Part shown: positions 23,359 through 57,338 of the stretch, piece after piece
Position numbering within the stretch: position 1 is the stretch's first letter
Layout of the letters: each line of letters opens with the position of its first letter
Assembly: GCA_964645775.1 (NCBI GenBank)
Contig: CAZYBU010000001.1
Location: 115,639 to 179,638, forward strand
Origin: an uncultured Leptospirales bacterium
Lineage (GTDB): Bacteria > Spirochaetota > UBA4802 > UBA5550
Direction: 5' to 3'
Length of the DNA: 64,000 nucleotides
Program-made: the position numbers and the translations under genes
The notes under the pieces: generated by a model
Seen by the model: the letters and a program-made list of their open reading frames with translations, nothing else
Told to the model about the DNA's origin: nothing
Databases searched by the model: none

Positions 23359-23379
23359 GAAATATTACAGGAATATGCC

Positions 23380-27300: not shown

Positions 27301-27442
27301 ACCCCTGGCGCGTGCCGTTATCGGGGGATTGAGCTCATCGTTCATCTTTACTCTGGTCTTTCTTCCGGTAGTCTATTCCCTGCTGGAGCAGATCAAGGAG
27401 AGCATACAGGCCCGGCTCGCCCGTGCAAAGGGAGGATATTGA
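24320..27442 (+). CDS. RND efflux transporter permease (AcrB/HAE1-like, 12 TM)
   Basis: 1040 aa. N-terminal MRLSDLSVNRAVFAAMLF and two large periplasmic loops flanked by TM bundles, as in AcrB. Confidence 0.88.
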   Translation: MRLSDLSVNRAVFAAMLFIGLTVIGGVSYSKMAIDLFPDIEYPVAIIITEYEDVGPKEVESTVTRPLEEAVAGINNIETLSSQSFEGVSLVTVEFAWGTDMGAGVADIREKLDLIKQALPNEVGTPMVLKFDVSMMPILIIAVTGERSIQDIRNYAEDHLKSRFEQVDGVATADVIGGYEDEVKVELDRNRMDAYGISIDTITQVLFLENMNTAGGEVKTDIMKYTLRTRGEFQTLDDIRNVVVGVKNRTPVYLSDIGRVYMGPEEKDNIVRLNGHDGVIMILRKQSDMNTVQVARRAVKRLDGIQENLPAGIGLNVFFNQSEYIEKSINNLIRTAIQGGVIAIFVVFIFLRSMRAALILGLSIPLSIIITFIGMYIFDLSLNMMSLGGLALGVGMLIDNSIVILENVFRFRERGARPMEAAKLGADEMAMAITASTLTTISVFLPFLFTEGLAGQLFKDMALTIAFSLLASLLVALTLVPMMTSRVIKVLHPAYGDRIPVVGRLLDWTDKAFHELEYYYGRVIRWALSHRKRVVAYTGMAIVIGLVLLPFAGMEFIPEQDENRLTFYVELPVGTNLESTEEVMKMVEKRVMNVLKKDEYAGLNVRAGQGTGISAVFSETKDHMGKVEIRFTGQSERERSDNELRKILRLALRDVPGAKINFSRGGREGGGLGGSFITVEIYGYDLEDAASYTREIYRALEKIPGVYDLEISREEGLPEKQIIINRDKASKMGLNTTVVANMVKDSVAGKKSTIYRKEGEEYDVVVRLREEDRRTIRDILSLKIQTPTGDAVPLGNIINIKTISGPTAIERKKQERVVFINCKAEGRDLRSVALDMKKVIRNIVPPKNFHARVAGSYEDMNESFRDLSLALLLAVVLIYIIMASQFESLWAPFIIMVTMPTMIFGVSFFLFLTGTTFNVISFMGVLMLAGIVVNNAIVYVDYTNILRARGKSLHEALSTAGELRLRPILMTTFTTIFGLVPMAIGLGEGSELTTPLARAVIGGLSSSFIFTLVFLPVVYSLLEQIKESIQARLARAKGGY

Positions 27443-27759
27443 TGAGTTCCGGAAAGAAGGGAAAGAAACCGTCTATGAAACTGGTCTTTATCATCTACAG
27501 CAACCCTGTGGATGAGGAAATCATAGAGATCCTGAGAGAAGAAGGCGCGGGTTACAGCAAGTTTGTGAACGTACTGGGAGAGGGAGACCGGGAACCTCAG
27601 CTGGGGAGCCATATCTGGCCCGGAATCAATAACTGTATTATCTCAGCCATGGACGAGACCATGGAGAAAAAAATGAGTAAGCGTATCATCTCCCTTAAGG
27701 AAAGGTACCAGGGAATCGGGATAACGGTCTTTTCAACGGGTCTTGATAGCTGGGAATAA
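27439..27759 (+). CDS. small soluble protein translationally coupled to the RND pump (possible PII/CutA-like fold, DUF3240-like)
   Basis: 106 aa, ATGA overlap with the RND stop. Beta-alpha-beta pattern (KLVFIIYSNPVDEEIIEILRE...GITVFSTG). Family assignment is an inference. Confidence 0.4.
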   Translation: MMSSGKKGKKPSMKLVFIIYSNPVDEEIIEILREEGAGYSKFVNVLGEGDREPQLGSHIWPGINNCIISAMDETMEKKMSKRIISLKERYQGIGITVFSTGLDSWE

Positions 27760-27863
27760 AAGGGTTCCAGTTTTAAGGCCTGCCTTGATCCTGGTGGGAT
27801 ACTACCTGGTATCCAACAATTCCCGGGAAGAATGGAGCGGGAACCTGCTTCGAAAGGAATGGA

Positions 27864-30800: not shown

Positions 30801-30974
30801 ACGGGAACTGGCACCTGGATACACTGCATAGATGACCATTTTGTCCATGTCGACCGAAGGGTACATCTCCCGGTTGATGTTTGTGCTGCTCATGATACCG
30901 GCAAAAAAGATAAAGATCATGATCAGGTTGACCAGGAGTGTGTTGCCGGCGAAGAAGCGTAGAATGCGATTCAT
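27864..30974 (-). CDS. second RND efflux transporter permease
   Basis: About 1036 aa from MNRILRFFAGN (the ORF extends to 31001). AcrB-like 12-TM topology. Confidence 0.82.
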   Translation of the reverse strand: MNRILRFFAGNTLLVNLIMIFIFFAGIMSSTNINREMYPSVDMDKMVIYAVYPGASSRDVEMNAVIPIEKELRKISGIRYFSSYSIENLGTIALFLDYDLQNKQAVKDEVFRNITTSNIPSISEDVETLKILDLNPKMMGIMHIAVMSRGESEPDEYRLNYQSDKMEELLLKIEGVSSVRKYGYREREVHIDVDLTKMDSYYVSLNNVVDSIRARNVRATGGTLQSLQNEQTIVTIGEFEDPLDVRDVIIRSNFEGKKIRIQDIADVSYGFKQTTSLTRVNSKRAIILEIVKNENADIITTAENVRTFIETDPLIDSEFQAEIINDQSDSISSMLNAVLGNAAIGFILVVLVLLFFLNLRSSFWIAVAIPISLMITLIGMNLYGITLNLVSIAAVVTILGILVDDGIVIGEAIFVERERGLPPLDAAANGVRRVIAPVTVSITTTIVAFLPMLAIKGMMGKVIFIFPLVITVALLASLFEGYFLLPNHLIHGSKKNKQGKALKVTGGGWFSVLEKWYSRFLARVLKFRYFMVLLIIAGLVGTLFISRETIRGFVLFWDDSSDRIYINLEAPDGTSQEYMDTLSLKVEKDLREVVPENEMVSTRIILGTHDVRPGDLKGAHENWSQIIVVLVPRTERDRTAERIIHNLRKEINIDTYPAFTRILYEKMSLGPPTGEPVNIKIIGKDMTLTGKIQKDIEEYLETLPGVFDVTNDQKAGKKELNISFDYERLAQFSLNVATVAQTVRVAYEGSVATSIETIEDTLDFRVQVDERYKRDRKFIENLLIPNQFGRLIRLGEVARIEKQTGKSVINHYNGDRVITITANVDEKQITSSQVAEKVLTRFSQTIQAHPEVSITMGGEAKETEESLGGLGRAFSIAIVMIYFMLTVLFRSVSQPLLIMITIPFSIIGALLAFTLHGIPLTFMGIVGIIGLSGVVVNDNVVMIDFINREIRDNSEFPIKRIIDGARQRLRPVILTTLTTVLGLLPTVYGIGGTSNAIVPTVMAMAYGLLFATVITLLFTPSIYLIHMDIQRLMGRR

Positions 30975-30975
30975 C

Positions 30976-32472
30976 TCAGTAGACCAGGTCCTGGTAATCA
31001 AAATTAAGATCGATAAGCTTACGTCTGATCTGGAGGATTTCGATCTTCTCCTGGGCTATCCGGTTTTCACTGTCCAGGACGTAAGTGAGATTAAGGCGGG
31101 CCATGTTGTATTTTCTGTATTCGGTCCTTAGTTTGGCTTCGAGGGCCTGAAGGTTCAGCTTCTTGTACCGCAGGCTGCGTTTGATACTTTCAGCCATCTC
31201 GCCGATGTTGGAAAGTCCCTGTTCATACTTCCTCCGGGATATCTCGTACTCATGGTTAAGCTGTTTTTTAAGTATTCTGGATTTCCTGTAGTCGGCCTTG
31301 CCTTCATGGTTGCCGATCGGATAGGTCAGCATCAGGCCGACTTCCAGGCCCACGTTTTCGCTGGATGTAAAAATCTTTCCAAAAGCGGCCCCGGCTTCGG
31401 GGTCCATTCCCTTTTTAGATACCTGGGCCATGAGGCTGAGCTGGGGCAGGGTTTTATTTCTGCCGGCTTTCTCAGCCATGTCAAGGCGCCGCATGGAATA
31501 CTGGTATATTCGCCAGTTGCCTGTTTTTTCGAAGGGGACGGGACTGAATTCCCTGGCCATGGATTTTTCTACGTACTTTTCAAAGGTAGATTCATCTGGA
31601 ATATATTTTTCCGTGTCAATGTAGGGATAGAGGTTAACATTTATTTGTTTAAAAGTCGATTTCAGGGTGTTCAACTGGTCCAGGTAGGTGTAGAGTGCCA
31701 GGTTAGATTTATTTACGTCATCCAGGTCGGCCATTCCCGAACGGTAATGACGCTGAACAGTAGCAACGATCCTTCTCGTGTTTGTAATGGTGCCTTCCAG
31801 TATTTCGATGATCCGCTGGTAAAGGATCCAATCGAAATAGAGTTTCCGGTAGTAGGTCTGAATGGATTTTCTGTACTGTTCCTGCCGGATCTTTTCAATT
31901 TCAGATTCAAACTTCGCGTCCTTTTCCGGGAAACGGTCGAGAAGTCCGAAGGAATTATAGAGGAGAGGTTGAGCCACTCCCACGTAGATTACCGGCTGGT
32001 AAAGGGTTTCATCAAAATGACCGCTCAATGAGGCGGGAGGAGACGTGTCATAATCATAGCTGGAATCCAGAATGCCGAATTTTACACCGGTCTTTAATCG
32101 TGTACCTGTTCTGGCGAAAGTCCGGGAAACACCGGTATCGACCTGAAGGCCGTGCACGCGGGAATGCGCGTTTATCTCTCCATCGATGGCAACCCCCAGG
32201 TCCCCGGAGCCGGAAAGAGACATGGAGGTATTGTCTAAAATATACTTTGTCTCCGATTCAAGGGTCCAATCCTCGATCTTTTTTTCTCTGTTGATCTTGT
32301 TTTCGGCCAGCAACTCTTCCATCTCGCTTTTCTTTAGTTCAGGAAGTTCATTTTTAAGAATCTGGCAATACTGTTCAAAGCTGATGGCTGTTTTATTTTC
32401 AGCGCTGTCCCGGGCCTCAAGGGAGAGGGGACTCACGGCAAGGATTATGAAGAGGAGGGTACACTGTTTCAT
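30976..32472 (-). CDS. TolC-like outer membrane efflux protein
   Basis: Start set at MKQCTLLFIILAVSPLSLEA (signal peptide). Two-repeat coiled-coil-rich architecture. Ends 1 nt before the RND start. Confidence 0.55.
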   Translation of the reverse strand: MKQCTLLFIILAVSPLSLEARDSAENKTAISFEQYCQILKNELPELKKSEMEELLAENKINREKKIEDWTLESETKYILDNTSMSLSGSGDLGVAIDGEINAHSRVHGLQVDTGVSRTFARTGTRLKTGVKFGILDSSYDYDTSPPASLSGHFDETLYQPVIYVGVAQPLLYNSFGLLDRFPEKDAKFESEIEKIRQEQYRKSIQTYYRKLYFDWILYQRIIEILEGTITNTRRIVATVQRHYRSGMADLDDVNKSNLALYTYLDQLNTLKSTFKQINVNLYPYIDTEKYIPDESTFEKYVEKSMAREFSPVPFEKTGNWRIYQYSMRRLDMAEKAGRNKTLPQLSLMAQVSKKGMDPEAGAAFGKIFTSSENVGLEVGLMLTYPIGNHEGKADYRKSRILKKQLNHEYEISRRKYEQGLSNIGEMAESIKRSLRYKKLNLQALEAKLRTEYRKYNMARLNLTYVLDSENRIAQEKIEILQIRRKLIDLNFDYQDLVY

Positions 32473-32629
32473 GGTCTTAGGTATCATGTTATAGGCAACC
32501 CGGGTTTGACTGTATAGGACTCGTTGCAATCTAGGCATAAGACAGGGAAAGTTCAACACATTAATCTTCTATTTAAAGTCATGTGAAAATAGCCTTGCAA
32601 AAAATGACGTTACCCTGTTCCCGTAAGCT

Positions 32630-41414: not shown

Positions 41415-41888
41415 ATGTCACATTATGAAGGAGGGCACGGATTGAAAATTGCCATAGGTTCTGATCACGCGGGCTATTCTTTAAAAGAAGAGATCAAGAG
41501 ACATCTGGTCAGTCACGATATTATGGATATGGGAACTCATTCAACGGAATCCTGCGATTATCCCGACTTTATCGCGCCTGTGGGAGAAACGGTTCGTGAT
41601 GGTGATGCCGATCTGGGTATAGTTATCTGTGGTTCCGGCATAGGGGCATCACTTGTGGCTAACAAGGTCCACGGAATACGGGCCGCCCTCTGTTTTAACG
41701 GTTACATGGCCGAGATGTCCAGGAAGCATAATAACGCTAACGTTCTTGCCCTGGGGGCCCGTGTTATCGGCCTGGATATCGCCATAAACATTGTGGATAC
41801 GTGGCTTGCAACCGGATTCGAAGGCGGCAGGCACCAGAGAAGAGTTGATAAGATTCATGAAGTGGAAACGAGGCAGTGCCAGTACTGA
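41415..41888 (+). CDS. rpiB: ribose-5-phosphate isomerase B
   Basis: 157 aa. KIAIGSDHAGYSLKEEI...GIVICGSGIGASLVANKVHGIRAAL is typical RpiB/LacAB. Confidence 0.85.
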   Translation: MSHYEGGHGLKIAIGSDHAGYSLKEEIKRHLVSHDIMDMGTHSTESCDYPDFIAPVGETVRDGDADLGIVICGSGIGASLVANKVHGIRAALCFNGYMAEMSRKHNNANVLALGARVIGLDIAINIVDTWLATGFEGGRHQRRVDKIHEVETRQCQY

Positions 41889-43588
41889 GATACATTCCTG
41901 ATCGCCTTCTTCCCCTGGCGGTCTGTTTTATACTCCTTCCTCTTTCACAGGGGGTGGGTGATTCCGGATATCTTGTTGTCTTCCCCAAAATTTCCGGTGA
42001 CCATCTACAAAATGCCCGTGTGGTCGATATGCCGGATGGTTCAACAGGTTACACGGTACGCGATCTCTCTTACGGTAACAGAAAAGGAGAGATAAAACAG
42101 GAGCTGGTTCTCTCTTTCAATCGATCGCCCGACAAAATGGGAAGAGACGATACTCGAAGGTATGACATCCGGAAGGCTTCTTTCCAGCTGGAAAATAGTG
42201 AAGCCAGTTTCGGATCTTCCTCGGCTCTTTTTTACAAGAGTGAACACGGTATAGAGATAGCCACGGAGAGGAGTCAATGGCTTGGTAGTTGTGGAGATCT
42301 CGGTTCGTTTACCTTCGAGTTCCGATTGAGGCCCACGGCTTTGAAGGATGGGAGCGTCCTTTTTTCCAGGGTGGGACGGCTTTCCGGTTCACCTATCGGG
42401 TTTGAGGTCGTGATCCTGGGACGGAGGATTGTAAGCCGGTTCCACAATATGTTTCAGACTGAGAACGGTAACAGGGTGAACATCGCTCTTACCCGGGGAC
42501 CCCAACTTGAAAGAGACCGCTGGTATCATTACCTGGTAACCTTTGATCGTCAGAGTGGTCGGATGGTCAGTTATCTTAACAACAGGGAGAATGAGACACT
42601 CTATATTACGGAAACCGGAAGACCGGGTGAAGGAGTATACACGCCTCTCTTCACCGCTCCCGGTGAGAAGGAAGATACCTGTGTCGATATGCCAGAAGTG
42701 CGTATCGGTAACCGTTATGCAGGATACCTCGATGAAATTCGGTTGAGCAGGTATGACCGGGTGGAGCTCTCCCGCCGTAGTGATATTGCCTGGAAAAGAT
42801 ACAGGGATACCGAGAAAGCCGGTAGAAACCCTTATAATTATGAGGGTATTGTTACAAGCCCTGTGTACAGTTTTAAGGGCACAGGAACCAGAATTACTCA
42901 TTTCCAATGGAATGAGAAAAAGAAAGACCATACTTTTATATGGATGGAATTCCGTATAGCTGACAGGCGATTCACCCGCGATGACCGTGATCTTAAATGG
43001 TACCGTATTAAAAACGGGGAGAGGACAATTTACCTGAAAAAAACAACGGAAGACCTCTATCTGAGGGGAAAGTATTATCAGTGGAGGGCTCACCTGGTGC
43101 CCTCGCCGGACGGCAGCCACGCTCCCGTAATATATACTATTTCATTGAGATATCAGCCCGATCTAAAACCGAAACCGCCCATGTTTCTTGAGACAACTGT
43201 AACAGGCGACCGAAGCGTTACTCTTAAATGGCTGAAAAGCTACGAAGATGATATAGCAGGATACAGGATTTACTATGGAACCGCATCCGGCAAATATGAT
43301 GGTATCATTGAGAGAGTAAAGGGTAAGCCCATTACCAACGATTTTTCCAGCGGGGATTATATTGAGCTGACCATAACAAATGATCTGGTTGAAGAGAACA
43401 GGGAAGCGGATACAAGGGAATTGCTTGATTATCCCAGGATCAGGAACAGGGTTCTCTACTTCTTTGCTGTAAGTGCCTATGATACCTACAGGACAGGAAC
43501 TCCCTATAATCATGAATCCGACCTCTCTGAAGAGGTAACCGGTCGACCCCATCTCGGATCAGAGATTACTCCTTCAAAACCTCATTGA
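41876..43588 (+). CDS. secreted protein with LamG/ConA-like jelly-roll and C-terminal fibronectin type III domain
   Basis: 570 aa. Signal peptide. Region ...DRWYHYLVTFDRQSGRMVSYLNNRE... is LamG-like. ...DRSVTLKWLKSYEDDIAGYRIYYGTASG... is FN3. Confidence 0.6.
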   Translation: MPVLRYIPDRLLPLAVCFILLPLSQGVGDSGYLVVFPKISGDHLQNARVVDMPDGSTGYTVRDLSYGNRKGEIKQELVLSFNRSPDKMGRDDTRRYDIRKASFQLENSEASFGSSSALFYKSEHGIEIATERSQWLGSCGDLGSFTFEFRLRPTALKDGSVLFSRVGRLSGSPIGFEVVILGRRIVSRFHNMFQTENGNRVNIALTRGPQLERDRWYHYLVTFDRQSGRMVSYLNNRENETLYITETGRPGEGVYTPLFTAPGEKEDTCVDMPEVRIGNRYAGYLDEIRLSRYDRVELSRRSDIAWKRYRDTEKAGRNPYNYEGIVTSPVYSFKGTGTRITHFQWNEKKKDHTFIWMEFRIADRRFTRDDRDLKWYRIKNGERTIYLKKTTEDLYLRGKYYQWRAHLVPSPDGSHAPVIYTISLRYQPDLKPKPPMFLETTVTGDRSVTLKWLKSYEDDIAGYRIYYGTASGKYDGIIERVKGKPITNDFSSGDYIELTITNDLVEENREADTRELLDYPRIRNRVLYFFAVSAYDTYRTGTPYNHESDLSEEVTGRPHLGSEITPSKPH

Positions 43589-43624: not shown

Positions 43625-45034
43625 ATGCAGACAACCTCCATGGAACGAAAAAAAATTGATATATCTTTACCTCCCGAGTTACGGAATGACATCGTGACTA
43701 TTCAGGAGACTCTCCGCCAGGCTGGTCATGAATGCTATCTGGTGGGGGGTTCTGTTCGTGATCTGATACTCGGGGACTTTATGGGAGACGTGGACTTTGC
43801 CACGAGCGCCCATCCGAAAATCGTCATGAGTCTCTTCAGCCGCGTGATACCCACCGGTATTCGCCATGGCACAGTCACAATCCTTATGGGAGACTGCACC
43901 TATGAAATAACCACCTACAGATCGGAGGGAACCTACGTCGATGGCCGCAGGCCTGAAAAGGTCTATTTTTCTGAAACACTGGAAGAGGATGTTATCCGAA
44001 GGGATTTTACGATCAATGGACTCGCTTATGATATTGAAAGCGGAGAGGTGATCGATTATATTGGAGGTCTCCGTGACCTGGATGATGGCGTTATCCGTAC
44101 CATAGGCGATCCCATGAAACGCTTCACCGAAGATGGTCTTCGGCCTATACGGGCGTGCCGGTTCTCCGCTCGTCTCGGTTTTACAATAGATGAAGATACC
44201 TTTCAGACCATACCTCGGACCCTTGATGTCACAAGGCGGGTCTCTGTTGAACGGATACGTGATGAATTCATGAAACTTCTGAGAAGTGACCGGCCTTCCG
44301 TGGGGATTGAAAATCTTCGTGTCTCGGGCCTGTTAGATATTTTTATGCCGGAACTGGTACAAACGTACGGAGTGGAGCAGAACCGTTTCCATATTTTTGA
44401 TGTATATCATCACAGTATTCACGCCTGTGACGCGGCTCCGGCCGAATATCCTCTTATCCGAATGGCAGCCCTGCTTCACGATATCGGCAAGGTTCCGACC
44501 CGGCAAATGGGAGAAGATGGCGATTACACCTTCTATAATCATGAGGTTGTGGGAGCCAGGATGGTAAAGCGTATCATGAAGCGGATGAAGTTTTCGAATG
44601 AAGATATTAACCGGGTTAATAATCTTGTTCTGAACCACATGTTCCACTATAAGGACGAATGGACGGATGGAGCGGTTAGAAGGTTTTTGAGAAAGGTGGG
44701 AGTAGAGAATGTCGATGAACTCTTCTCCCTTCGTATCGCTGACCGCACGGGTAACGGTTCCCGTGAAGGTATGCCTGTTCCCATGAAGAAGCTTCGGAAA
44801 CGAATCGAAAGAATTATTGAGGAAGAAAACGCCATTACCGTACGGGACCTGGAGATTGACGGCAATACCGTTATGAAAGAATGTAATCTTTCTCCAGGGC
44901 CCATGGTCGGAAGGGTCCTGCATGAACTACTGGAGTTGGTGCTGGATGATCCTGCCATTAACGAAAATGAAAAACTGGTCCTCCTGGCCAGGGAAATCTG
45001 TACACGTTTGAAGGAAGAACGTGGTGAATCCTGA
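43625..45034 (+). CDS. cca: CCA-adding tRNA nucleotidyltransferase / polyA polymerase family with HD domain
   Basis: 469 aa. Pol-beta NTase motif GGSVRDLILG...DVDFAT. HD motif in C-terminal half (HDIGK). Confidence 0.82.
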   Translation: MQTTSMERKKIDISLPPELRNDIVTIQETLRQAGHECYLVGGSVRDLILGDFMGDVDFATSAHPKIVMSLFSRVIPTGIRHGTVTILMGDCTYEITTYRSEGTYVDGRRPEKVYFSETLEEDVIRRDFTINGLAYDIESGEVIDYIGGLRDLDDGVIRTIGDPMKRFTEDGLRPIRACRFSARLGFTIDEDTFQTIPRTLDVTRRVSVERIRDEFMKLLRSDRPSVGIENLRVSGLLDIFMPELVQTYGVEQNRFHIFDVYHHSIHACDAAPAEYPLIRMAALLHDIGKVPTRQMGEDGDYTFYNHEVVGARMVKRIMKRMKFSNEDINRVNNLVLNHMFHYKDEWTDGAVRRFLRKVGVENVDELFSLRIADRTGNGSREGMPVPMKKLRKRIERIIEEENAITVRDLEIDGNTVMKECNLSPGPMVGRVLHELLELVLDDPAINENEKLVLLAREICTRLKEERGES

Positions 45035-45578
45035 ACGAGTTTTCTGCTTTATTGCTCTCCTCCTTCTGGTCTTTGCAGGTTGTTCGGACGAAGGCGATTC
45101 AGCTTCTTCCACGGATAACATCGGAAACAAAACATTTCTTCAGGAGAAAAGTGAAGATCTCCAGCATGAGAGCAGGGAAAAGCAGGCGGGAGAACCTGTT
45201 ACAGCTGAATCTATCCATGGAAGATGGAAACTGCATTATCGGGGAAACTATGGATATGATTTCTACTTCGGTCAGGGGTATAATGCCCGTATAATTATCA
45301 GTCTTAACACACAATACCTTGTCTTTCATGGTGTCTATACCGTTAAGGATGGCGTGGTCACAATAAATATTTTCAAGATGAAATCAGAGACTGATCGCAA
45401 CAGGGTCTACGCAAAGAAGGACTTTATAAAGGTTAAGTCCTCAAAATTTGAATTTAACGGTACAAGGGTGAAAAGTAATGGCCGATCCATGCTGTACCTG
45501 AAACCGGGAGTGATAACCATAGATGGCCACGATTCACGGGGATATTTTGAACCTCTTCTAAAACTCAGGAAGATTTGA
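45021..45578 (+). CDS. lipoprotein, unknown function
   Basis: 185 aa. Signal peptide with lipobox LLVFAGC. Confidence 0.5.
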   Translation: MVNPERVFCFIALLLLVFAGCSDEGDSASSTDNIGNKTFLQEKSEDLQHESREKQAGEPVTAESIHGRWKLHYRGNYGYDFYFGQGYNARIIISLNTQYLVFHGVYTVKDGVVTINIFKMKSETDRNRVYAKKDFIKVKSSKFEFNGTRVKSNGRSMLYLKPGVITIDGHDSRGYFEPLLKLRKI

Positions 45579-45579
45579 A

Positions 45580-46326
45580 ATGGTACATGTCGTGATCCCC
45601 ACAACTGATGGCTACGAACTCGATGGTACTCTCTACGGAGATACAGGAGGAGAGACACCGGCCATTGTCTACTGTCATGGTATGCTCTCGAGCAAAGATG
45701 GATATAAGGTTCGTCATCTCGGTCCCTTTCTGGCCGACAAAGGGTATCCTCTTCTCGCCTTTACCTTTTCAGGCGCTACCCCATCCGGGAATATCTTTCA
45801 TCATCTTTCGATCCTGAATGAAGTGAAGGAACTGGCCAGTGTTGCAGGATGGATGCGTTCCAGAGGCTATGATAAAATTCATCTTGTGGGATCCAGTCTC
45901 GGAGGTCTGATTGTTCTTATTTACGCTTCCGGATGGGATCCCGCTCTCTGCGCTCTTACAACCGTGGCTACACCTGTTGACCTCAAGGAAGCCTTTACGG
46001 CCTGGAAGGTTCCACCTGCAGATGAGCTTGACCCGGAGAGTTTTACGAACATAGAGGGGACATCTATCACAAACCGATTTTTCCTGGAAGGATATGAGCT
46101 TGATGTTTCCTCTTACCTGAAACGCATTGATCTTCCACTTCAGGTAATACACGGATCTGAAGATGAGACCGTCCCCTTCATCAACGCCTCCCGTTTGATC
46201 TCTATGGTACCCGATGAGGCGAAACAGGTTACTCTTGATGGAGGTGACCATTCACTGACTCGGAGTGAATGGCTGAACATGATACAGGAAAGGATATTTG
46301 AATGGACTTCCTTCTGCAAAAGCTGA
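45580..46326 (+). CDS. alpha/beta hydrolase (dienelactone-hydrolase/esterase-like)
   Basis: 248 aa. GxSxG elbow HLVGSSLGG. Probable catalytic Asp and His downstream (IHGSEDE..., GGDHS). Confidence 0.72.
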   Translation: MVHVVIPTTDGYELDGTLYGDTGGETPAIVYCHGMLSSKDGYKVRHLGPFLADKGYPLLAFTFSGATPSGNIFHHLSILNEVKELASVAGWMRSRGYDKIHLVGSSLGGLIVLIYASGWDPALCALTTVATPVDLKEAFTAWKVPPADELDPESFTNIEGTSITNRFFLEGYELDVSSYLKRIDLPLQVIHGSEDETVPFINASRLISMVPDEAKQVTLDGGDHSLTRSEWLNMIQERIFEWTSFCKS

Positions 46327-46727
46327 ACTACGCGGGAATCTATGCCGCCCTTGCCGGTCTCTATCTTTTGGGAACCGGAATAATGGAAATTACTCGTCCT
46401 CTCACGGTTTCGGGTCTCTGGGAAAGGTTTATCCAATCACGGCTGTTTCCCGCTTACGGGGTTCTGCTTACACTTCTGGCTCTACCGTTGACCCTTTACA
46501 GGGGATATTTTTCCTGGTTTATTCTTATCATGGGAGCGCTTGCCGCCATTACCGGTCCTGTTATACTTCTTTTCCCCGGCTTTATTCAGAAGAACATGAT
46601 GGCTATGACTCGAAACGAGGAAGGAGAGGATCTGCTTCCGGGAGTCGTACGCATGGACGGTATTCTTCGTATCGTTCTGGGACTCATCTTCCTTACGGGA
46701 GTAAGCCTGACACTTTCACTTTCCTGA
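46302..46727 (+). CDS. small membrane protein (4 TM)
   Basis: 141 aa, hydrophobic. Overlaps the previous gene end by 25 nt. Confidence 0.45.
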   Translation: MDFLLQKLNYAGIYAALAGLYLLGTGIMEITRPLTVSGLWERFIQSRLFPAYGVLLTLLALPLTLYRGYFSWFILIMGALAAITGPVILLFPGFIQKNMMAMTRNEEGEDLLPGVVRMDGILRIVLGLIFLTGVSLTLSLS

Positions 46728-46821
46728 GAATCCAAAAATATTTGACACCTCTCTTCCCGATCCTTCATGATAGACTTAGGCTAAGCCTGCCCGCTAAAAC
46801 GCGTTAAACCCTGGAGAACCG

Positions 46822-49800
46822 ATGAATTATATCAATGTCAGTCACAGCCGCAGATACAGCGGAACGATTAGCGGTAGATCAAGTGAAATCCAAGATAGAT
46901 TTCCCGCCTCAAACATCCTTGAAGAGGATGGATTCTGGTCCACCCAGGTCCGGGAATCACCGATCTCCGAATATGTCATAATTGATTATGGAGAGGATGT
47001 GTTCATCGATTATGTAGAGATACATCCTGTAACCGAACAGCCTTCTGGTTTCCCTTCGTATTTCCATTTGGAGTGCAGTGATGACACTTCCGTCTGGAGG
47101 ATACTGCTCACCGAGAAAGAGTATAATACCGATGGGACCCCATACCGAGTAGATCTGCCCCTTACGCGTACGAGGTACGTTAAATTTGCAGCACCTCGTT
47201 CATGTGAAATGGAAAAAAAATTTCAGATCCGGGTAGCCCGTATCGAGGCCGGAATCTCCGGAATACTGGAACTGGATGCCACGAGCAGCGAGCAGGAACA
47301 TGATGTTAAGAACCTCCTTTCCGATAACAACCGGGAGACGTGGCTTTCAAGTCCAAAAAGCAATCCCTCACGGGAGACTCTGAACATAGACCTGGGAGAC
47401 GTTTACGGAGTAAACCGGATTATCCTGGAATCATCCCTGAAGGGTTTCCCCGCCAATATCACCATCGAAACAAGCGCGGGTGAAGATGTCTGGACAATTC
47501 TCCATGATGAGAAAGGATTCCTGGCTGAATCTTTCAAAAAGTATTACTGGGAAGAGGGTGTTATCCAGGCCCGTTTTATCCGCGTGGAAATGTCCACTAC
47601 GCCCTTCTTCGAGAACCGGCATCAGGTTCAGCTCGCCTCCCTCGAGATCTGTGCCGCTCACCTGGAAGAAAACCATTCACATAATATTGGAGAGCTTACA
47701 ACGCACGCTTCAGTCTTTATGCCAGGAATGGTAAGACTCGCTCGTGATGGTGAAGAAACAATGGGGACAGCCGTTCAGGCCAATGACCGTCGTCTTAGGG
47801 ACGCTACGGAACTTTTCAAGGGGATTGTTCGTTTCGCTGAAGAAGGCGAGTCTGAACCGCTCGTAGCTCTCCAGTCGTCAGATCCGAGGGTACAGCCGGC
47901 CACAGGGGAACAATACGGCATAGTGCGTCTGGCTTTTGACAGGGAGACCAAACCGGGTAGTGTGATCCAGGGAAGTGATTCGCGGCTTCAGCACGCTACA
48001 CCGGATAATTTTGGTATTGTCCGAATTTGTCCCAATGGCGAATACATGGAAAGTGGAGTCATTACCGGTAATGACTGCCGTCTTCAGAAGGCAACGACAG
48101 ACGAGCCAGGAATAAGCCGTATTGCCAAAAATGGAGAGTCTTCCCATGATGCCGTTGTTAGCTCCACGGACAGAAGACTTTCTCACGCGGGGACCACATC
48201 TTATGGAATTGTTATACTTGCGGGAGACGGGGAGGAGAACGAGGGAAAGGTTATTCAGGCTAATGATCGTCGATTAAAAGATGCAACAACCCTGGCGCCC
48301 GGTATTGTTGAGCTTGCGGAGGACGGGGAGGAGAGCCCGGGAACCGTTGTTCAGGGTAATGACCGCCGTCTTCGGGACGCCACCACGGAATCAAAGGGGA
48401 TCGTTGAGCTTGCGGAGGACGGGGAGGAGAAGAACGGAACCGCTGTCCAGGGTAATGACCGCCGTCTTCGGAACGCCACCACGGAATCAAAGGGGATTGT
48501 GGAACTGGCAGAGAACGGAGAGAAGAATCCGGGGGTTGCCGTTCAGGGTAACGATCGCCGGCTGGAAGATGCTACCATAATTTCTACCGGCATTGTTCGT
48601 CTGGCTTCGGATGGAGAAGAGGCTGAAGGTTCCGCTGTTCAGGGCAATGACCGTCGACTTCGGGAGGCAACGACAATTTCTACCGGCATTGTTCGTCTGG
48701 CTTCGGATGGAGAAGAGGCTGAAGGTTCCGCTGTTCAGGGCAATGACCGTCGTCTTCGGGACGCTACCACGGAATCGAAGGGCATTGTAGAGCTGGCCGG
48801 GGATGGGGAGGATAAGCCGGGTACCGCTGTACAGGGTAACGACCATCGTCTCAAGGAAGCGACGACAGTCTCTACAGGTATTGTTCGTCTGGCCCTGAAC
48901 GGTGAGGAGACGGAAGGGGCGGCTGTTCAGGGTAACGACAGTCGTCTTCGGGACGCCACCACGGAATCGAAGGGCATTGTAGAGCTGGCCGGGGATGGAG
49001 AGGATAAACCGGGTACCGCTGTCCAGGGCAGCGATCGTCGTCTCCGTGACTCCAGCACGACATCAAAAGGTATAGTAGAGCTGGCGGAGGATGGGGAAAG
49101 CGTCCCTGGAGTCGTTGTTCAGGGTAATGATTCCAGACTACGGATAGGAACAGAAGAATATCCCGGGATTCTGCGTGTCGCTCCTGCCGGGGTCTCCCGG
49201 GAAGGACTTGTGGTGCAATCCAATGATCCACGGCTTGTGGACTCGAGAGAACCCCTTCCCCATGAACATGAGTACGCTCCTCTGCATCATCGACTGGAAG
49301 ATCATGAGGGTATCCTGGCGGTGGATGACAGCAGGGCCATGAAATTTATGGATGTTAATCCTCCTTTGTCCGATTCATCCGTGATTTACGGTAAAAACAA
49401 ATCGGAGGGAACGGGAGCTATCGGTATAACCGGAACGGTTCGTCCCGGGAATGGCAAGAAATCTACCGCTTACGGGGTAGTGGGCGATAGTTTGCATATC
49501 GGGGTCCGCGGACAGGCAACAGGAGATTCCGATTCCCGGGGATGCGGAGTGGCCGGCCTCGCCAGGAGTGGTCATGGAGGAGCTTTCCTGAGCGAGCATG
49601 GGTATTCACTCATGGTCGATGGATATGGCCGGGAAACAAACAGTCTGGATGAAACAATTAATCTTAAAGGGGATGGGAAAGCCCTTTATGTGGATGGTGC
49701 GTCATTTTTTAAAGGTCAGGCTACTTTTCAGTTCAGCAGGGATGAAGCGACCGGAAACCTGGTAGAGTTCTTTGAGGTGGATGACGAAGAGTATATTTCC

Positions 49801-50154
49801 CCTGGTGATATCCTGGTTGTAAGCGACCGGGGAAAATCGATGCTGTCGAAATCACGTATCACATATAACCGGTCTGTTATAGGAGTTGTTTCTGACACTC
49901 CGGCTGTTATTCTTAATGGTGCACCTGAGGGGAAGGTATATGCCGTTGCCCTCGCCGGTAAGGTGATGTGTAAAGTGGATGCCCGGAACAAACCCATACG
50001 GCCTGGAGATTTCATTGTCACATCGGACACTCCCGGCTGCGGGATGAGCGGAAAAATCGATTCTTTTGATAAAATAGGCACTGTCCTGGGCAAGGCCCTG
50101 GATGGGCTGGAGGAGGGGCTGGGGACCATCCCTCTTTTTATTCAGCCTATGTAA
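46822..50154 (+). CDS. giant repeat protein with 2x discoidin (F5/8 type C)-like domains, 16 tandem 32-aa repeats and a unique C-terminal domain
   Basis: 1110 aa. No signal peptide. The region from aa 30 to about 290 shows two galactose-binding-like modules. 16 x G[IV]V[ER]LAxDGE...VQGNDRRLRDAT repeats. 300-aa Gly-rich C-terminal domain. Confidence 0.8.
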   Translation: MNYINVSHSRRYSGTISGRSSEIQDRFPASNILEEDGFWSTQVRESPISEYVIIDYGEDVFIDYVEIHPVTEQPSGFPSYFHLECSDDTSVWRILLTEKEYNTDGTPYRVDLPLTRTRYVKFAAPRSCEMEKKFQIRVARIEAGISGILELDATSSEQEHDVKNLLSDNNRETWLSSPKSNPSRETLNIDLGDVYGVNRIILESSLKGFPANITIETSAGEDVWTILHDEKGFLAESFKKYYWEEGVIQARFIRVEMSTTPFFENRHQVQLASLEICAAHLEENHSHNIGELTTHASVFMPGMVRLARDGEETMGTAVQANDRRLRDATELFKGIVRFAEEGESEPLVALQSSDPRVQPATGEQYGIVRLAFDRETKPGSVIQGSDSRLQHATPDNFGIVRICPNGEYMESGVITGNDCRLQKATTDEPGISRIAKNGESSHDAVVSSTDRRLSHAGTTSYGIVILAGDGEENEGKVIQANDRRLKDATTLAPGIVELAEDGEESPGTVVQGNDRRLRDATTESKGIVELAEDGEEKNGTAVQGNDRRLRNATTESKGIVELAENGEKNPGVAVQGNDRRLEDATIISTGIVRLASDGEEAEGSAVQGNDRRLREATTISTGIVRLASDGEEAEGSAVQGNDRRLRDATTESKGIVELAGDGEDKPGTAVQGNDHRLKEATTVSTGIVRLALNGEETEGAAVQGNDSRLRDATTESKGIVELAGDGEDKPGTAVQGSDRRLRDSSTTSKGIVELAEDGESVPGVVVQGNDSRLRIGTEEYPGILRVAPAGVSREGLVVQSNDPRLVDSREPLPHEHEYAPLHHRLEDHEGILAVDDSRAMKFMDVNPPLSDSSVIYGKNKSEGTGAIGITGTVRPGNGKKSTAYGVVGDSLHIGVRGQATGDSDSRGCGVAGLARSGHGGAFLSEHGYSLMVDGYGRETNSLDETINLKGDGKALYVDGASFFKGQATFQFSRDEATGNLVEFFEVDDEEYISPGDILVVSDRGKSMLSKSRITYNRSVIGVVSDTPAVILNGAPEGKVYAVALAGKVMCKVDARNKPIRPGDFIVTSDTPGCGMSGKIDSFDKIGTVLGKALDGLEEGLGTIPLFIQPM
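47725..49260 (+). repeat. in-frame tandem array of 16 x 96-bp units
   Basis: Exact period of 96 nt. Units 10/11 (48589-48780) and 12/14 are nearly identical at the nucleotide level. Confidence 0.85.
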
Positions 50155-50156
50155 TG

Positions 50157-50768
50157 TCAGGGTGAGAGGTTATTCAGGACCTCTATCTCATCCCGGTTGA
50201 AGACTTTGTCCTGGTATTCATTCAACTCTTTTGATATTTCCTGGCTGATATAGGTTATTCTACGGGAATAAGGATTATCTTCATATTGGTTAACCCAGAG
50301 GATGATGATGGTCTTTTCGGATGTCCATGCTATGGACCCCTGCATATCTTTAATGGATTCCATGTTAGCGGGACCAAATTTTTCTTCCAGTTTACTTTTT
50401 ACGTCTTTGTAATCAAGATAGGGGAATGAGAGAGCTACATAAAAAAGGCGGCTTTCCCCTTTAGATTCCTCATCTTCAGCAGAGGGATCCCCGGCAGGAG
50501 TCTCTTTTTCCGTTGATGGGAGCTTTGATGGATCAAGATATAAAAAGCCATAATAATACGTAATGGAGCCATCTCTGGATATGATGACCCGTTTATCATC
50601 CGTATATACAATTTTTCCCTTGATAGTATCCTTCGCGTCCTTCATGGATGTCCCCCATGTCATCTCCCCGTATCCTTCAGGAAGGGCCTTTCGGTTTTCC
50701 TGAGAAAAGATGACAGAAGCGACTAAAAGGACAGAAAGGATGATCGTTATTTGTTTCATTCTTCTCAC
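50157..50768 (-). CDS. secreted protein, unknown function
   Basis: 203 aa. Signal peptide MKQITIILSVLLVASVIFS. Confidence 0.5.
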   Translation of the reverse strand: MRRMKQITIILSVLLVASVIFSQENRKALPEGYGEMTWGTSMKDAKDTIKGKIVYTDDKRVIISRDGSITYYYGFLYLDPSKLPSTEKETPAGDPSAEDEESKGESRLFYVALSFPYLDYKDVKSKLEEKFGPANMESIKDMQGSIAWTSEKTIIILWVNQYEDNPYSRRITYISQEISKELNEYQDKVFNRDEIEVLNNLSP

Positions 50769-53536: not shown

Positions 53537-54547
53537 ATGAAGGAGATTCAGTCAATACTGATCGGCGCGGTCCTGCTCCTGGTACTTTTTCAGGCGGAAT
53601 CCCATGGTGCACTTGTTATAAGTGAATTCACCACATCCGCTTCCTCTGATTGGGTCGAGGTCCAGCTTCGGGGAGAGGAGGCAATGGATATATCCCCGCT
53701 TCTGGTTACCATGTATTACGGATCCAACGAATCCCTGGCAGATGAGCCGGTCACCCTGAGAGGAAGTGACCTTCCGGATACACCCTGGAATGACCGGTAT
53801 GCGGTGATACATTTCACCGATGTCGGAGAGGATGAGACCGATTCAGCGGGAGATATTAACGGTAACGGGATCAGGGACATCTATTGTCAGAACTATTCCG
53901 GGACCCTCTGGAATACGGATGGAATCGTTGCGATAGATTCGGACGATGATCCTGAGAATGGCGGCATCCTGGATATGGTAGCGTACAGTCACCATGACGG
54001 CGGTTATCACTCAACGATTTTGGGATACATCGAGGCTGGTATTGATCAGGGTCAGTGGATGCCGGACCGCGAGGGTGGACCGGGTTGTTTTGACATCGGA
54101 GAAAATGGACTTAAGTCCCACATGTCCGTTTCAAGGAAGGAGGGAGAGGACAGCAACAGCGCCGATGATTTTCAGGTGACCCCCTACCAGACCCCGGGCC
54201 GGCCGAATATCTTTCCATCAAAAAAGAATAGGTTTCCCCTGATCCAGCTTTCCGGAACCGGAAAGAAAATACTCCTGGGCGGTTCCAGTAAAAATGACAG
54301 GGCGAATATCCGTCTTCTTGTTCACGAGAACTGTCGTGTCTCTTTTCAGGTCTTCTCTGTCTCCGGATTGTCGGTATCCTCCAGGCAGGTGCTGGAAGAG
54401 TGTTATCCCGGCATCCACGAGATCTCATGGAAACCACCGGCACGGCTTGTCACCGGTCTTTACCTGGGTCTAATCGAGGCAACTTCCAGGGGGAGTGGCC
54501 GCTACAGCAGGATGGTGATCTATTTGATCATCTCCAGGGGGCGCTGA
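53537..54547 (+). CDS. secreted lamin-tail-domain (LTD)-like protein with T9SS/FlgD-Ig-like C-terminal domain
   Basis: Signal peptide. LTD-like start ALVISEFTTSASSDWVEVQL. C-terminal beta-sandwich ...RVSFQVFSVSGLSVSSRQVL...GLYLGLIEA...RMVIYLI resembles por-secretion CTD. Confidence 0.5.
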   Translation: MKEIQSILIGAVLLLVLFQAESHGALVISEFTTSASSDWVEVQLRGEEAMDISPLLVTMYYGSNESLADEPVTLRGSDLPDTPWNDRYAVIHFTDVGEDETDSAGDINGNGIRDIYCQNYSGTLWNTDGIVAIDSDDDPENGGILDMVAYSHHDGGYHSTILGYIEAGIDQGQWMPDREGGPGCFDIGENGLKSHMSVSRKEGEDSNSADDFQVTPYQTPGRPNIFPSKKNRFPLIQLSGTGKKILLGGSSKNDRANIRLLVHENCRVSFQVFSVSGLSVSSRQVLEECYPGIHEISWKPPARLVTGLYLGLIEATSRGSGRYSRMVIYLIISRGR

Positions 54548-55806
54548 TGAATGTAATCGTGATCATTGCCCTTTCAGCCCATCTTGCGCAGGCCTTCTCC
54601 TATGGTACGGTTTCCGCGGAATCTCCCTACCCCTTTGCCAGGGCCCGGGAGCTGGCCCACGGCATGATGGTAACGGACAATCCCGCCCGGCTAAATGGGA
54701 GGCGGGGACTCTGGTTAACGGGTTCGGCCACCCGTCCCTATTCCCTTCCGGAACTGGGAGCCACGGTTACCGGCGCCGGTTACACTTCTGAAAACTGGTC
54801 CACTTCCCTGGGCTGGACCCATTTTGGTCTTGAAGGATACAGGGAGCATTCTCTGGGGCTTACTCTTGCCTGGCGCCCTTTTCCTCTGCTCAGGATAGGG
54901 GTCCGCGGGACCTGGTATCACCTTGATATGGACATCGACTCCCATACGATGAATGGAGGGGACCTGGATCTGGGGATTGAGGTGGTTCCCCTGGAGTGGC
55001 TGGTTCTATCGGGGAGAGTAAGCAATCTGCTTTCCCTGACCCGAAGGGGCGGCGAGAACTGGATACCGGGCGAATGGTCCGTGGGGGCCTCAGTCCATCC
55101 CTTCCGGGGCAGTGCTATCTCCTGGAACGGGAGCGAAACGATCTACGGATTCATTAACAGTCTGGAGGTCCGCCTCGATATTCTGCGTGAGTTATCCATT
55201 GCCGCGGGATACGCACGTGAAACGGAGACCTTTACAGCGTCCGCGACCCTTATGCTTCCCTTCCTGGCTGTTTCCTATGGGACATCCTACCATACGAGCC
55301 TGGGCTACACACATCTCTTTTCCATGGAACTGAGCCAAAAACGAAGCAGTGTGGAACCTCTAATTCATGGAAGAAGAGAAAAAAGGAAGAGTAAAGATCC
55401 GAAACCGAATATTCAAAAGGCGAACGCGGAAGTTCTTGGCCGGGTAAGAGGCATATCGCCTGAGCTGGCGGAGCGGATCGTTATCTACAGGGAGAGCATC
55501 GGTCCTGTAACGGAGAAGGCCCTGGTGCAGCTCGGTCTAACGGAAGGAGAACTCAGGGATCTCAGGAATCGCATCACTGGACTGGAAAAGACAAAATCAG
55601 ACTGGAGAAAAAAGAAATTCCAGAAACGTAAAGGAAGGAGGATTCTTGCGGCCGATCTCTTTAACCGGCTCGTGGGGGCCGGAGTACAACCGGCCGATGC
55701 CCTTAAAGTTGTCCGCGCCATGCCAGGAGGAGATGTTCGGGTTATTCTTGAATCTTACCCTGATGCTGTGCGTGAAGAGGCGGTACGGCTGTGTGGCGGT
55801 GGTTAG
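54547..55806 (+). CDS. putative outer-membrane beta-barrel protein with C-terminal ComEA-like helix-hairpin-helix DNA-binding module
   Basis: Start at MNVIVIIALSAHLAQA (TGATG overlap with the upstream stop). About 280 aa of amphipathic beta-strands. ...ANAEVLGRVRGISPELAERIVIYRESIGP... matches the ComEA HhH. Confidence 0.5.
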   Translation: MNVIVIIALSAHLAQAFSYGTVSAESPYPFARARELAHGMMVTDNPARLNGRRGLWLTGSATRPYSLPELGATVTGAGYTSENWSTSLGWTHFGLEGYREHSLGLTLAWRPFPLLRIGVRGTWYHLDMDIDSHTMNGGDLDLGIEVVPLEWLVLSGRVSNLLSLTRRGGENWIPGEWSVGASVHPFRGSAISWNGSETIYGFINSLEVRLDILRELSIAAGYARETETFTASATLMLPFLAVSYGTSYHTSLGYTHLFSMELSQKRSSVEPLIHGRREKRKSKDPKPNIQKANAEVLGRVRGISPELAERIVIYRESIGPVTEKALVQLGLTEGELRDLRNRITGLEKTKSDWRKKKFQKRKGRRILAADLFNRLVGAGVQPADALKVVRAMPGGDVRVILESYPDAVREEAVRLCGGG

Positions 55807-57338
55807 TTCTCTGGACTCTGGTTGTCCTCCTCTTCCCCATAAAGGCCTGGGCAGACAGGAAAGAGGATTTCCGTCTCTCTCTCTATGGAGGATATACCAT
55901 GGAAAGAGAGGAGGAGAGCCCCGTTCTTGTCATGGGAGGCAGAAGTCGTTACAGTGACGGAAGGGGGCTCCAGGCCTCCCTGGCTTTAAAGCACTATCCC
56001 GGGGAGAGGACTTCTTCCACCTCTACGCTGTTGCTTGAACGTGAAAGGGGAGGCATCGCCGCAGGTAATTACCATCTCCATATAGGGACCGGGCTCTATG
56101 TGGGAAAACGTTCTTTTTATGTGTCATCACCCTACGATTTGATGCCGGCAGTTAGCCGTGAGATGAAACTCAAGGCCGACACCTCCGGTACAGGTGATTA
56201 TTCTCTGCGTGGAGCCGCTCTCTACTTCAACCCCGGAAAGAATGTTCGGATCGGAGCCTGGTATTCCAATCGGTTACGGTACGCGGATTTGACCGAAAGA
56301 CGAATAGAAACTACCCTGGAGACCCTGGACGGTTACCCTTACCCACAGGGGGATCGGAGGGATTCCGTAGTCCGTCATGACCAGGGTATATTTATTTCAT
56401 TCACCGGCAAACATGTATGCCTGGAGTCAACCTTCTCCGTCATGGCACTGGAGAACGACCGTCGCATCCTTACCTGGGGATACAGTGAGATTGACGGAGG
56501 ACCCTGGTCAAAGGACCTCCAGGCGGGAGGCAGCCTCTACGGACGGATAGCCTGGCCCGGGTTCGTTCTTTTCGGGGAAGTGGCCCACAGTCATATCCGG
56601 GGACAGTATGGAAAGAAGAAAACAACAGGGAGAGGCGGTAACGCCATGAGAGCCGGGATAGTCGGAGGAAGTAAAAAAATTTCACTTTCCCTGCTTCTTC
56701 ACAGGGAGGAACCCGATTACCTGGCGCCCCTGTCTGATGGAATTTCCGTCAGAAACAGATGGGAACTGCGGTTTAGACTGAGACCCCTGAAATGGTATTC
56801 TCTGACCCTGCTTGCCGAAACAAAAAGGACCCGTTCACGGGAGGCAGGAGAGCCTGAACCTGCCCGGGCATCGGCGGGGATGACATTTCGATGGAAAAAA
56901 ATGGAGGCTAAAGTTTCCGGTCGTATCGTCTACGGTGGAGTGGAGCCCCTCTCCTGGCAGGTTAAATCCAGCTTCCTCGGGAGAATCGGGAAGAGATGGT
57001 CCCTGGAGGGACGGTCTCTCTACCAGCGTCAGGGAAGCGCCGCCGGGGGAAGCGCTGAGGCTCTCTGTGCCTGGCATCCCCTTACGGTATTATCCCTGGA
57101 TGGCCGCTACCGCTTCCGTTTTGTTAAAGAGGGAAAAGGAGTTTATCTGGGAAGCTACTCAGTGGACCCCTCTCTTTTCCCCCTTGTGTACCGTAACAGG
57201 ACAGGCCATGAGGCTTCAGTGAGAGTATTGTTGAAACAAAAGAATCTGAGATTGGCCCTGAAAGGGGGAATGTCCTTTCTTGCCGACAGGATATCAGAGG
57301 CCCGCATGGATTTCGCGGCTGGATTAAAATTTCCCTGA
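55791..57338 (+). CDS. putative outer-membrane beta-barrel protein
   Basis: 515 aa. Signal peptide MWRWLVLWTLVVLLFPIKAWA. Alternating hydrophobic beta-pattern. C-terminal ...AAGLKFP. Confidence 0.45.
   Translation: MWRWLVLWTLVVLLFPIKAWADRKEDFRLSLYGGYTMEREEESPVLVMGGRSRYSDGRGLQASLALKHYPGERTSSTSTLLLERERGGIAAGNYHLHIGTGLYVGKRSFYVSSPYDLMPAVSREMKLKADTSGTGDYSLRGAALYFNPGKNVRIGAWYSNRLRYADLTERRIETTLETLDGYPYPQGDRRDSVVRHDQGIFISFTGKHVCLESTFSVMALENDRRILTWGYSEIDGGPWSKDLQAGGSLYGRIAWPGFVLFGEVAHSHIRGQYGKKKTTGRGGNAMRAGIVGGSKKISLSLLLHREEPDYLAPLSDGISVRNRWELRFRLRPLKWYSLTLLAETKRTRSREAGEPEPARASAGMTFRWKKMEAKVSGRIVYGGVEPLSWQVKSSFLGRIGKRWSLEGRSLYQRQGSAAGGSAEALCAWHPLTVLSLDGRYRFRFVKEGKGVYLGSYSVDPSLFPLVYRNRTGHEASVRVLLKQKNLRLALKGGMSFLADRISEARMDFAAGLKFP

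Follow-up and report, generated by a model that had tools for sequence, protein, structure and literature searches.

The described systems closest to the gene analysed here are phage fibre proteins, sugar-binding CBM32 modules and the tandem coding repeats of Treponema pallidum. The C-terminal domain of the phi29 pre-neck appendage gp12, a protein known for its autocleavage and its dependence on ATP, drives trimer folding, as Xiang et al. are said to have shown in 2009, and HxH motifs in the T4 fibres gp37 and gp12 bind metal ions on the three-fold axis. CBM32, or F5/8 type C, modules are usually appended to secreted glycosidases. For the autochaperone at the C-terminus of phi29 gp12, PMC6542822 cites Xiang et al. 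2009 (Mol Cell 34:375), and the T. pallidum genes arp and tp0470 provide a spirochaete precedent for variable-number tandem repeats in coding sequence that are mishandled in short-read assemblies (PMC9531955). Here we analyse a 64,000-nucleotide (nt) stretch of contig CAZYBU010000001.1 from an uncultured Leptospirales bacterium (the whole stretch is hereafter called the window), in which a gene for a lectin-headed, phage-fibre-like protein carries 16 tandem copies of a 96-nt unit. We found no literature on this protein family in spirochaetes. The gene, for which 46822 is the first possible start after an upstream stop, has the following parts:

46813-46816, forward strand: GGAG, a Shine-Dalgarno-like sequence that ends 5 nt upstream of the ATG
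46822-50154, forward strand: the fibre-like gene, lectin-headed and phage-fibre-like, an open reading frame (ORF) of 1,110 amino acids (aa)
46879-47691, forward strand: two tandem F5/8 type C (discoidin/CBM32-like) domains, approximately aa 20-145 and 150-290
47725-49260, forward strand: the array, 16 × 96 nt, encoding 16 × 32 aa (aa 302-813)
49261-49305, forward strand: His-rich motif HEHEYAPLHHRLEDH, directly 3′ of the array
49369-49728, forward strand: Gly-rich beta region (aa ~850-969) with short strands and many invariant Gly residues
49729-50151, forward strand: C-terminal domain of ~140 aa that folds like the C-terminal autochaperone of phi29 gp12, the pre-neck appendage

Cutting positions 47725-49260 every 96 nt yields 16 units, all in the frame of the ORF, with zero indels and with Gly as the first residue of each; coordinates, number and period are exactly those given in an earlier note on this DNA, and the 'giant gene' in which that note placed the units turned out to be an ORF of 1,110 aa. 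The consensus of the 32-aa unit is GIVELAEDGExxxGxAVQGNDRRLKDATTxSK. The motif is not present in the 96-nt pieces that flank the array on either side, and the opposite strand of the array holds no ORF of at least 150 aa. Across 25 species the 512-residue array could be aligned without any gap, and in 86 orthologues Gly1, Gln18, Asp21 and Arg23 are invariant in almost every unit. An array like this lies far outside what chance would produce. In Tandem Repeats Finder, only the core of higher similarity is called (48304-49130; 8.6 copies of period 96, with 71% matches), together with higher-order periods of 192 and 288 nt. Within the array, the units and the exact repeats are distributed as follows:

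47725-48204, forward strand: units 1-5, each conserved in its own right and orthologous by position between genomes
48205-49068, forward strand: units 6-14, an interchangeable core in concerted evolution, where the unit gain and loss of relatives is located
49069-49260, forward strand: units 15-16, positionally conserved
48579-48656 and 48675-48752, forward strand: a perfect 78-nt direct repeat, present twice, that runs across units 9/10 and 10/11
48766-48806 and 48958-48998, forward strand: a 41-nt perfect repeat at an offset of 192 nt, the second longest exact repeat

Units 10 and 11, which the earlier note had called virtually identical, do share the 78-nt perfect tract, but their identity overall is 89% (85/96), so that the wording was too strong; the pairs 7/8 and 12/14, both described there as highly similar, share 90% and 78% of their DNA positions, and units 11/13 share 82%. 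For the outer units (1-5, 15 and 16), DNA identity to any other unit is only ~40-55%. The 78-nt direct repeat constitutes the longest exact repeat, or recombination substrate, in the array, the other ~18 nt of each period being different. The 41-nt repeat is part of a two-unit, 192-nt period in which units of the types ...ESK-GIVEL and ...IST-GIVRL alternate, and this higher-order period suggests conversion or duplication in two-unit blocks. Between 48628 and 49011 the 192-nt period is 83% identical, with ...TTESK units leading into GIVEL... and ...TxST units leading into GIVRL....

No Pfam family covers the repeat unit. It matches PHROG 910, 'tail collar fiber protein', in four stretches (E=2.8e-18), and the array profile weakly matches the shaft of the T4 short tail fibre gp12 (PDB 5iv5; E=0.018); common to PHROG 910, the T4 gp12 shaft and the array is the module A-T-T-x-x-K-G-I-V-x-L-A-x-x-G-E...A-V-Q-G-N-D-x-R-L. 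A pattern scan of IMG/VR revealed 29 viral loci that carry the unit, with 1-3 dispersed copies per protein in contrast to the 16 exact-period tandem copies of the window gene. The phage unit reads 'DASTTxKGxVELATDGExxAGVVVQGNDSRLSDARTPxxH', and its continuation '...RLSDARTPxxH' matches the stretch that follows unit 16 in the window protein ('NDPRLVDSREPLPHEHEY'). Here unit 16 passes into a ...NDPRLxDxREPLP junction that phage copies of the motif carry too, and PHROG 910-type phage proteins have a ...SDARxPxxH continuation like the one after unit 16. A tblastn search with units 6-16 found no match in 50,697 GenBank phage records, a miss that is probably due to the low-complexity filter or to divergence.

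The same array profile also matches BurrH (4cja_A, Burkholderia, 33-aa repeats) at E=3.7e-14, as would be expected if the array were an alpha-helical solenoid akin to transcription activator-like effectors (TALEs), binding nucleic acid, instead of a fibre shaft. That alignment, however, needs an insertion in each unit (33 versus 32 aa), is mostly of low-to-moderate posterior confidence and has essentially only 'IVxxA' and 'AV' in common with the array. The unit, moreover, is rich in Gly, Pro, Asn and Asp and is modelled by AlphaFold2 (AF2) as two strands with one 4-residue turn, it is found in phage fibre proteins beside the ...SDARTPxxH junction and matches PHROG 910, and the domains that flank the array are a lectin and a phage-fibre chaperone. 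We consider a TALE-like solenoid extremely improbable and rejected the BurrH match as weak periodic similarity summed over many repeats. The pattern common to the array and the BurrH repeats, 'IVxxAxxxG...AV', is a curious one.

The domains on both sides of the array extend the likeness to known systems. The two N-terminal domains match CBM32 modules by sequence (Pfam PF00754, above threshold) and by fold; here they head a phage-fibre-like protein that lacks a signal peptide, whereas such modules usually accompany secreted glycosidases. At the opposite end, fold comparison identified the C-terminal domain with the C-terminal fragment of phi29 gp12 (PDB 3gqh). A sub-model of the C-terminal part is confident for the last ~130 residues only and leaves the Gly-rich stretch at aa 850-960 unmodelled. 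A profile of this region found no match among PDB sequences, so that gp12 was found by fold comparison alone, and the whole protein gave only chance matches to PYL10 (E ~0.5) in the same collection. The two C-terminal domains are thus alike in fold with sequence similarity below the Pfam threshold, and the bodies of the proteins differ, that of phi29 gp12 being a beta-helix enzyme and that of the window protein a repeat shaft. By analogy, the C-terminal domain would be expected to drive or nucleate trimer folding. Pfam matches to Fibrinogen_BP (PF08017) and bMG3 were rejected as below threshold and driven by repeats or bias, and NCBIfam gave no match for the protein or its neighbours.

Between the array and this domain, residues H814, H816, Y818, H823 and H828 of the His-rich motif are invariant in the 86 orthologues, and the motif is predicted, by analogy with the T4 fibres, to be a metal-binding HxH site. 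The Gly-rich region that follows is poorly modelled as a monomer, with predicted local distance difference test (pLDDT) values <50 at aa ~850-930 and ~60-75 near aa 960. In the AF2 monomer, each unit of the array consists of a strand, a loop, a strand and a 4-residue helical turn. The fibre-like parts point to a putative trimeric rod, and the function that we infer for the protein is that of a fixed-length, lectin-tipped fibre.

In IMG/VR, ~290-310 stretches encode a viral relative. In the 80 loci listed for the full-length profile, every match is confined to the C-terminal region (30-40% identity) and none is a full-length relative. Ten of 12 such loci that we translated read cleanly, and all ten have the gp12-like domain at the extreme C-terminus; eight of these ORFs are ~1,050-2,800 aa long and one is 549 aa. 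This C-terminal module appears to be common, though sub-threshold in Pfam. The domain follows the pattern 'ADLAExY...GVVS...GRVPCKV...GTVIGKAL', and some lie on viral contigs longer than 90 kb.

Comparison of the array between genomes separates two classes of units. When 44 genomes with 16-unit arrays are compared, units 1-5, 15 and 16 find their best match in the same-position unit elsewhere (for units 1-5 this also holds against the relative L001), and no positional orthology is seen for units 6-14. These central units are in many genomes 95-100% DNA-identical to one another, with up to 36 unit pairs at least 85% identical within one genome. The closest relative (86% aa identity), which has 16 units in an array identical in two Joint Genome Institute (JGI) samples, shows DNA identities of 99% between units 7/8 and 92% between units 11/13, but only 67% between units 10/11. 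Because this relative homogenised other pairs, the 78-nt tract of the window, which takes in synonymous sites, represents a lineage-specific conversion event, one that was recent and left the unit count unchanged. Judged from these alignments, gene conversion in the array is well supported, and the recent conversion suspected in the earlier note is borne out both by this tract and by the missing positional orthology of units 6-14.

Despite this exchange of sequence, the number of units is largely constant. Of the 120 best homologues, 86 carry 16 units; 15 units are found in 20, 14 in eight, 17 in one and 10-13 in a few. Intact species-level arrays, 61 in all, give a similar picture: 16 units in 41, 15 in nine, 14 in three, 9-12 in single or few cases, and 18 and 20 in one each. 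The window, its second record (at the protein level) and its nearest relative all have 16. Arrays of this size occur on contigs of 3-4.8 Mb and on one complete chromosome, and they are also kept where the units have diverged to 64-74% DNA identity, so that the number must be old and not a convention of assembly. On this evidence, the copy number of 16 is under strong constraint, with selection as its presumed cause. The two longest arrays are those of L026 (18 units) and L035 (20 units); the former contains a 395-nt perfect in-register repeat, about four identical units, produced either by very recent expansion or by faulty assembly.

Variation in unit number was followed in ten clusters of proteins that are at least 90% identical, chosen for size and including several with non-16 representatives. 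In eight of the ten, full-length members differ by whole units only (15/16, 14/15/16, 15/16/17 or 13/15), and seven of these eight clusters include a 16-unit member. When four pairs were aligned unit by unit, the absent unit fell in the homogenised core in each, nearly all other units were 100% identical and three differed at one residue (96-100% identity throughout). In one further cluster all eight records have 16 units. The window's own cluster holds two records, both with 16, and thus no difference in unit number. The frame-preserving gain and loss of units predicted by the earlier note would be reflected among relatives in the whole-unit differences (13-17 units), and the comparison of repeat number that it proposed detects such differences in most of the clusters sampled but not between the two records of the window organism. 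Its expectation of copy-number instability holds in a limited sense: unit numbers do differ among records of relatives, but 16 predominates among species arrays and homologues alike.

If the locus were instead hypervariable, of the contingency type, with rapid length or antigenic diversity of a surface fibre and no preferred length, both the whole-unit differences in eight clusters and the homogenised core units would follow, and T. pallidum arp and tp0470 (PMC9531955) would be its spirochaete precedent. The resemblance to those genes is real in that their tandem units are in frame, their copy number varies between close strains around a dominant modal value, and they are excluded or broken in short-read assemblies. 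Yet the sequences and proteins are unrelated, at 96 nt the window units exceed theirs in length, most of them have diverged, and the repeat number of the window family is kept across a whole clade as opposed to within one species for arp and tp0470. Exactly 16 units in two-thirds or more of the arrays, even at 64-74% unit identity, and a cluster of eight records without variation fit poorly with a locus of no preferred length, and because the key residues of every unit are invariant, selection appears to be purifying rather than diversifying. We therefore hold hypervariability to be quite improbable.

The opposite possibility is that the number is structurally fixed at 16 and that all variation among close relatives is an artefact of short-read metagenome assembly. 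Deviations are skewed to fewer units (the 15- and 14-unit homologues against the single one with 17), seven of the eight polymorphic clusters hold a 16-unit member, and the indels lie between identical or near-identical units, a pattern that would result from assembly collapse just as from unequal recombination. Contig breaks in the array are frequent as well: of 80 species-representative contigs, at least seven stop within it, leaving fractional unit counts, the clusters contain many 'partial' proteins of 350-650 aa, and in two loci the array is spread over two frames (12+4 units in L078, 7923-11436; 7+10 in L069, 5737-9353), a frameshift in the repeat that indicates sequencing or assembly error or a pseudogene. 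An assembler cannot, however, collapse arrays of 15, 14 or 12 units whose longest exact in-register repeat is 24-48 nt (L056, L024, L048, L064 and L068), which means that true unit loss has taken place in evolution, and arrays of 17, 18 and 20 units exist. Taken together, these arrays imply real unit change, at least over evolutionary time, and make it improbable that artefact explains all of the variation, although somewhat less so than hypervariability.

For the window itself, the earlier note had warned of collapse, and the breakage within family arrays shows that the hazard exists. A 78-nt repeat at 96-nt spacing could hide copies from assemblers that use short k-mers, and related assemblies show trouble in the array, so that the true copy number might differ from 16. 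However, the window has the modal number, and a second record (ENA, 200-kb contig) has the same protein length and falls in the same cluster of at least 90% identity; 16 units are also seen in two samples of the nearest relative, a 78-nt repeat fits within reads of 100-150 nt, and there are no frameshifts or fractional units. Because reads are commonly longer than the longest exact repeat, the array of this window is unlikely to have collapsed, and a mis-assembled array ranks in our estimate slightly below even hypervariability. Thus, the window array is real and its assembly at 16 units probably right; family-wide, the array is hazardous for both assembly and gene calling, and databases abound in truncated entries ('partial discoidin domain-containing proteins') and in versions that are off by one unit.

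A search of a large protein collection gave 258 homologues of the fibre-like protein. Where source names are given among the 120 listed, all are Spirochaetota or unclassified-bacterium metagenome-assembled genomes, and the proteins are annotated as nothing more than 'discoidin domain-containing protein' or 'hypothetical protein'. A relative is encoded in at least 270 Spirochaetota species-representative genomes, many of them labelled Leptospirales or Leptospiraceae by their submitters. In the window, we scanned roughly 40 ORFs (at least 150 aa) against Pfam; none has a phage-type domain, those with a match are ordinary chromosomal genes, and ~13 of those scanned have no match. A prophage or tailocin context was rejected for the window on this ground: unlike phage fibre genes, the gene is chromosomal and has no virion genes nearby. 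Given the lack of a full-length IMG/VR relative among the 80 loci listed, the partly conserved synteny, the presence in at least 270 genomes and the ordinary neighbours, the fibre-like gene has the character of a host gene that is assembled from parts of phage fibres. It represents an uncharacterised family, so far found only in uncultured Spirochaetota, whose members consist entirely of such parts and lectin domains, and looks like a domesticated phage gene.

We consider it probable that the array is the phage-fibre-like shaft of an ordinary chromosomal gene, evolving in concert under stabilising selection on rod length. According to this model, a phage-tail-fibre-like protein would now be an ordinary chromosomal gene in a large uncultured Spirochaetota clade, in which the phage module would have multiplied into a head-to-tail series of 16, preceded by two discoidin (sugar-binding) domains and followed by a phi29-gp12-like domain that, by analogy, would nucleate trimer folding. 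The outer units (1-5, 15 and 16) would evolve independently, and the central units 6-14 would overwrite one another by gene conversion within the array or by unequal exchange, with the 78-nt tract in units 10/11 as one recent overwriting event. The same recombination may occasionally add or remove whole units, always in frame, after which selection on rod length would restore or hold 16. Of the components of this model, the array, the homology to a phage module, the C-terminal fold, the concerted evolution, the conserved number of 16 and the whole-unit differences among near-identical records are supported directly.

Several observations weigh against parts of it. The protein has no signal peptide, because 46822 is its earliest start and its N-terminus has no hydrophobic stretch; nor is any other export signal recognisable, and for this reason a location outside the cell is only putative. 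The earlier note's surface or adhesin rod fares accordingly: a binding rod is plausible given the lectin, phage-fibre-shaft and gp12-like domains, but exposure at the surface is no more than putative. The C-terminal domain scores 17.3 bits against Pfam PF11962, the Peptidase_G2 intramolecular chaperone (IMC) domain, below the cut-off of 25 (sub-threshold matches occur in 12 of 27 orthologues, the best at E=3e-4), and the pLDDT of the shaft in the AF2 monomer is ~60-65, so that the trimeric rod stays predicted. Whole-unit differences among near-identical records could partly or wholly reflect assembly collapse, and because the clusters were picked for size and for non-16 representatives, eight of ten overstates the frequency of polymorphism. 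Selection on length, finally, is something that we infer from conservation.

A further step would be that a captured phage fibre gene has become a lectin-tipped trimeric rod of the host, in which the 16 modules act as a ruler or spacer whose length is held by selection. This is a speculative reading to which we give a minority chance, albeit a better one than to any of the alternatives weighed above. If it were true, the conserved 16 would reflect a set physical distance, either within the cell envelope or from one cell to another, and the location and ligand of the protein, if found, could reveal a new envelope or adhesion structure in environmental spirochaetes. Concertedly evolving coding tandem repeats and phage-fibre modules were already known. 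New are the architecture of two CBM32 domains, 16 tandem shaft modules and a gp12-like C-terminal domain, the conservation of such a gene in the chromosomes of a large uncultured spirochaete clade, and the clear decoupling of homogenisation from the conserved repeat number. The family thus offers a clean natural case of within-gene concerted evolution with a repeat number that is constant over deep divergence, in which sequence homogenisation is separable from copy-number drift and which points to selection on fibre length.

The immediate neighbours of the fibre-like gene are arranged as follows:

45021-46807, forward strand: upstream genes, comprising a lipoprotein-like ORF of 185 aa, an alpha/beta hydrolase (45580-46326) and a small ORF
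50157-50768, reverse strand: a convergent 203-aa protein with a clear signal peptide, tail-to-tail with the fibre-like gene at a distance of 2 nt

Of all neighbours, the 203-aa protein is the best conserved: it belongs to no family in Pfam or NCBIfam, has a tblastn match in 66 of 84 related loci and lies directly tail-to-tail with the fibre-like gene in the related loci inspected. It may be a functional partner, or the arrangement may be simple synteny. The lipoprotein-like ORF and the alpha/beta hydrolase are found upstream in ~25 related loci (about a quarter). Other genes in the window encode, for example, a histidine kinase, a class II tRNA synthetase, an aldehyde ferredoxin oxidoreductase, alcohol dehydrogenases, a penicillin amidase, UbiD, RpiB, a CCA-adding enzyme and an HtrA-like protease, and include two resistance-nodulation-division (RND) efflux operons. 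These two operons (21248-32559) lie on opposite strands and face each other; each comprises an outer-membrane factor, a membrane-fusion protein and an AcrB-like pump, and a TetR regulator is located upstream of the first.

A second lectin-domain gene lies further upstream on the forward strand (41876-43588). It encodes a 570-aa protein with a hydrophobic N-terminus and a Laminin_G_3/concanavalin-like lectin domain, shares 13 nt with the end of rpiB and belongs to a same-strand string that ends with the fibre-like gene; no related locus has it nearby. Downstream, three ORFs on the forward strand (53537-57338) encode proteins of 336, 468 and 515 aa; the second of them contains an HHH_3 motif. 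Homologues of these ORFs lie near the fibre-like gene in ~15 related loci (for example, L005, L006, L024 and L031), and a homologue in L001 has a weak Pfam match to TP_1001_2nd.

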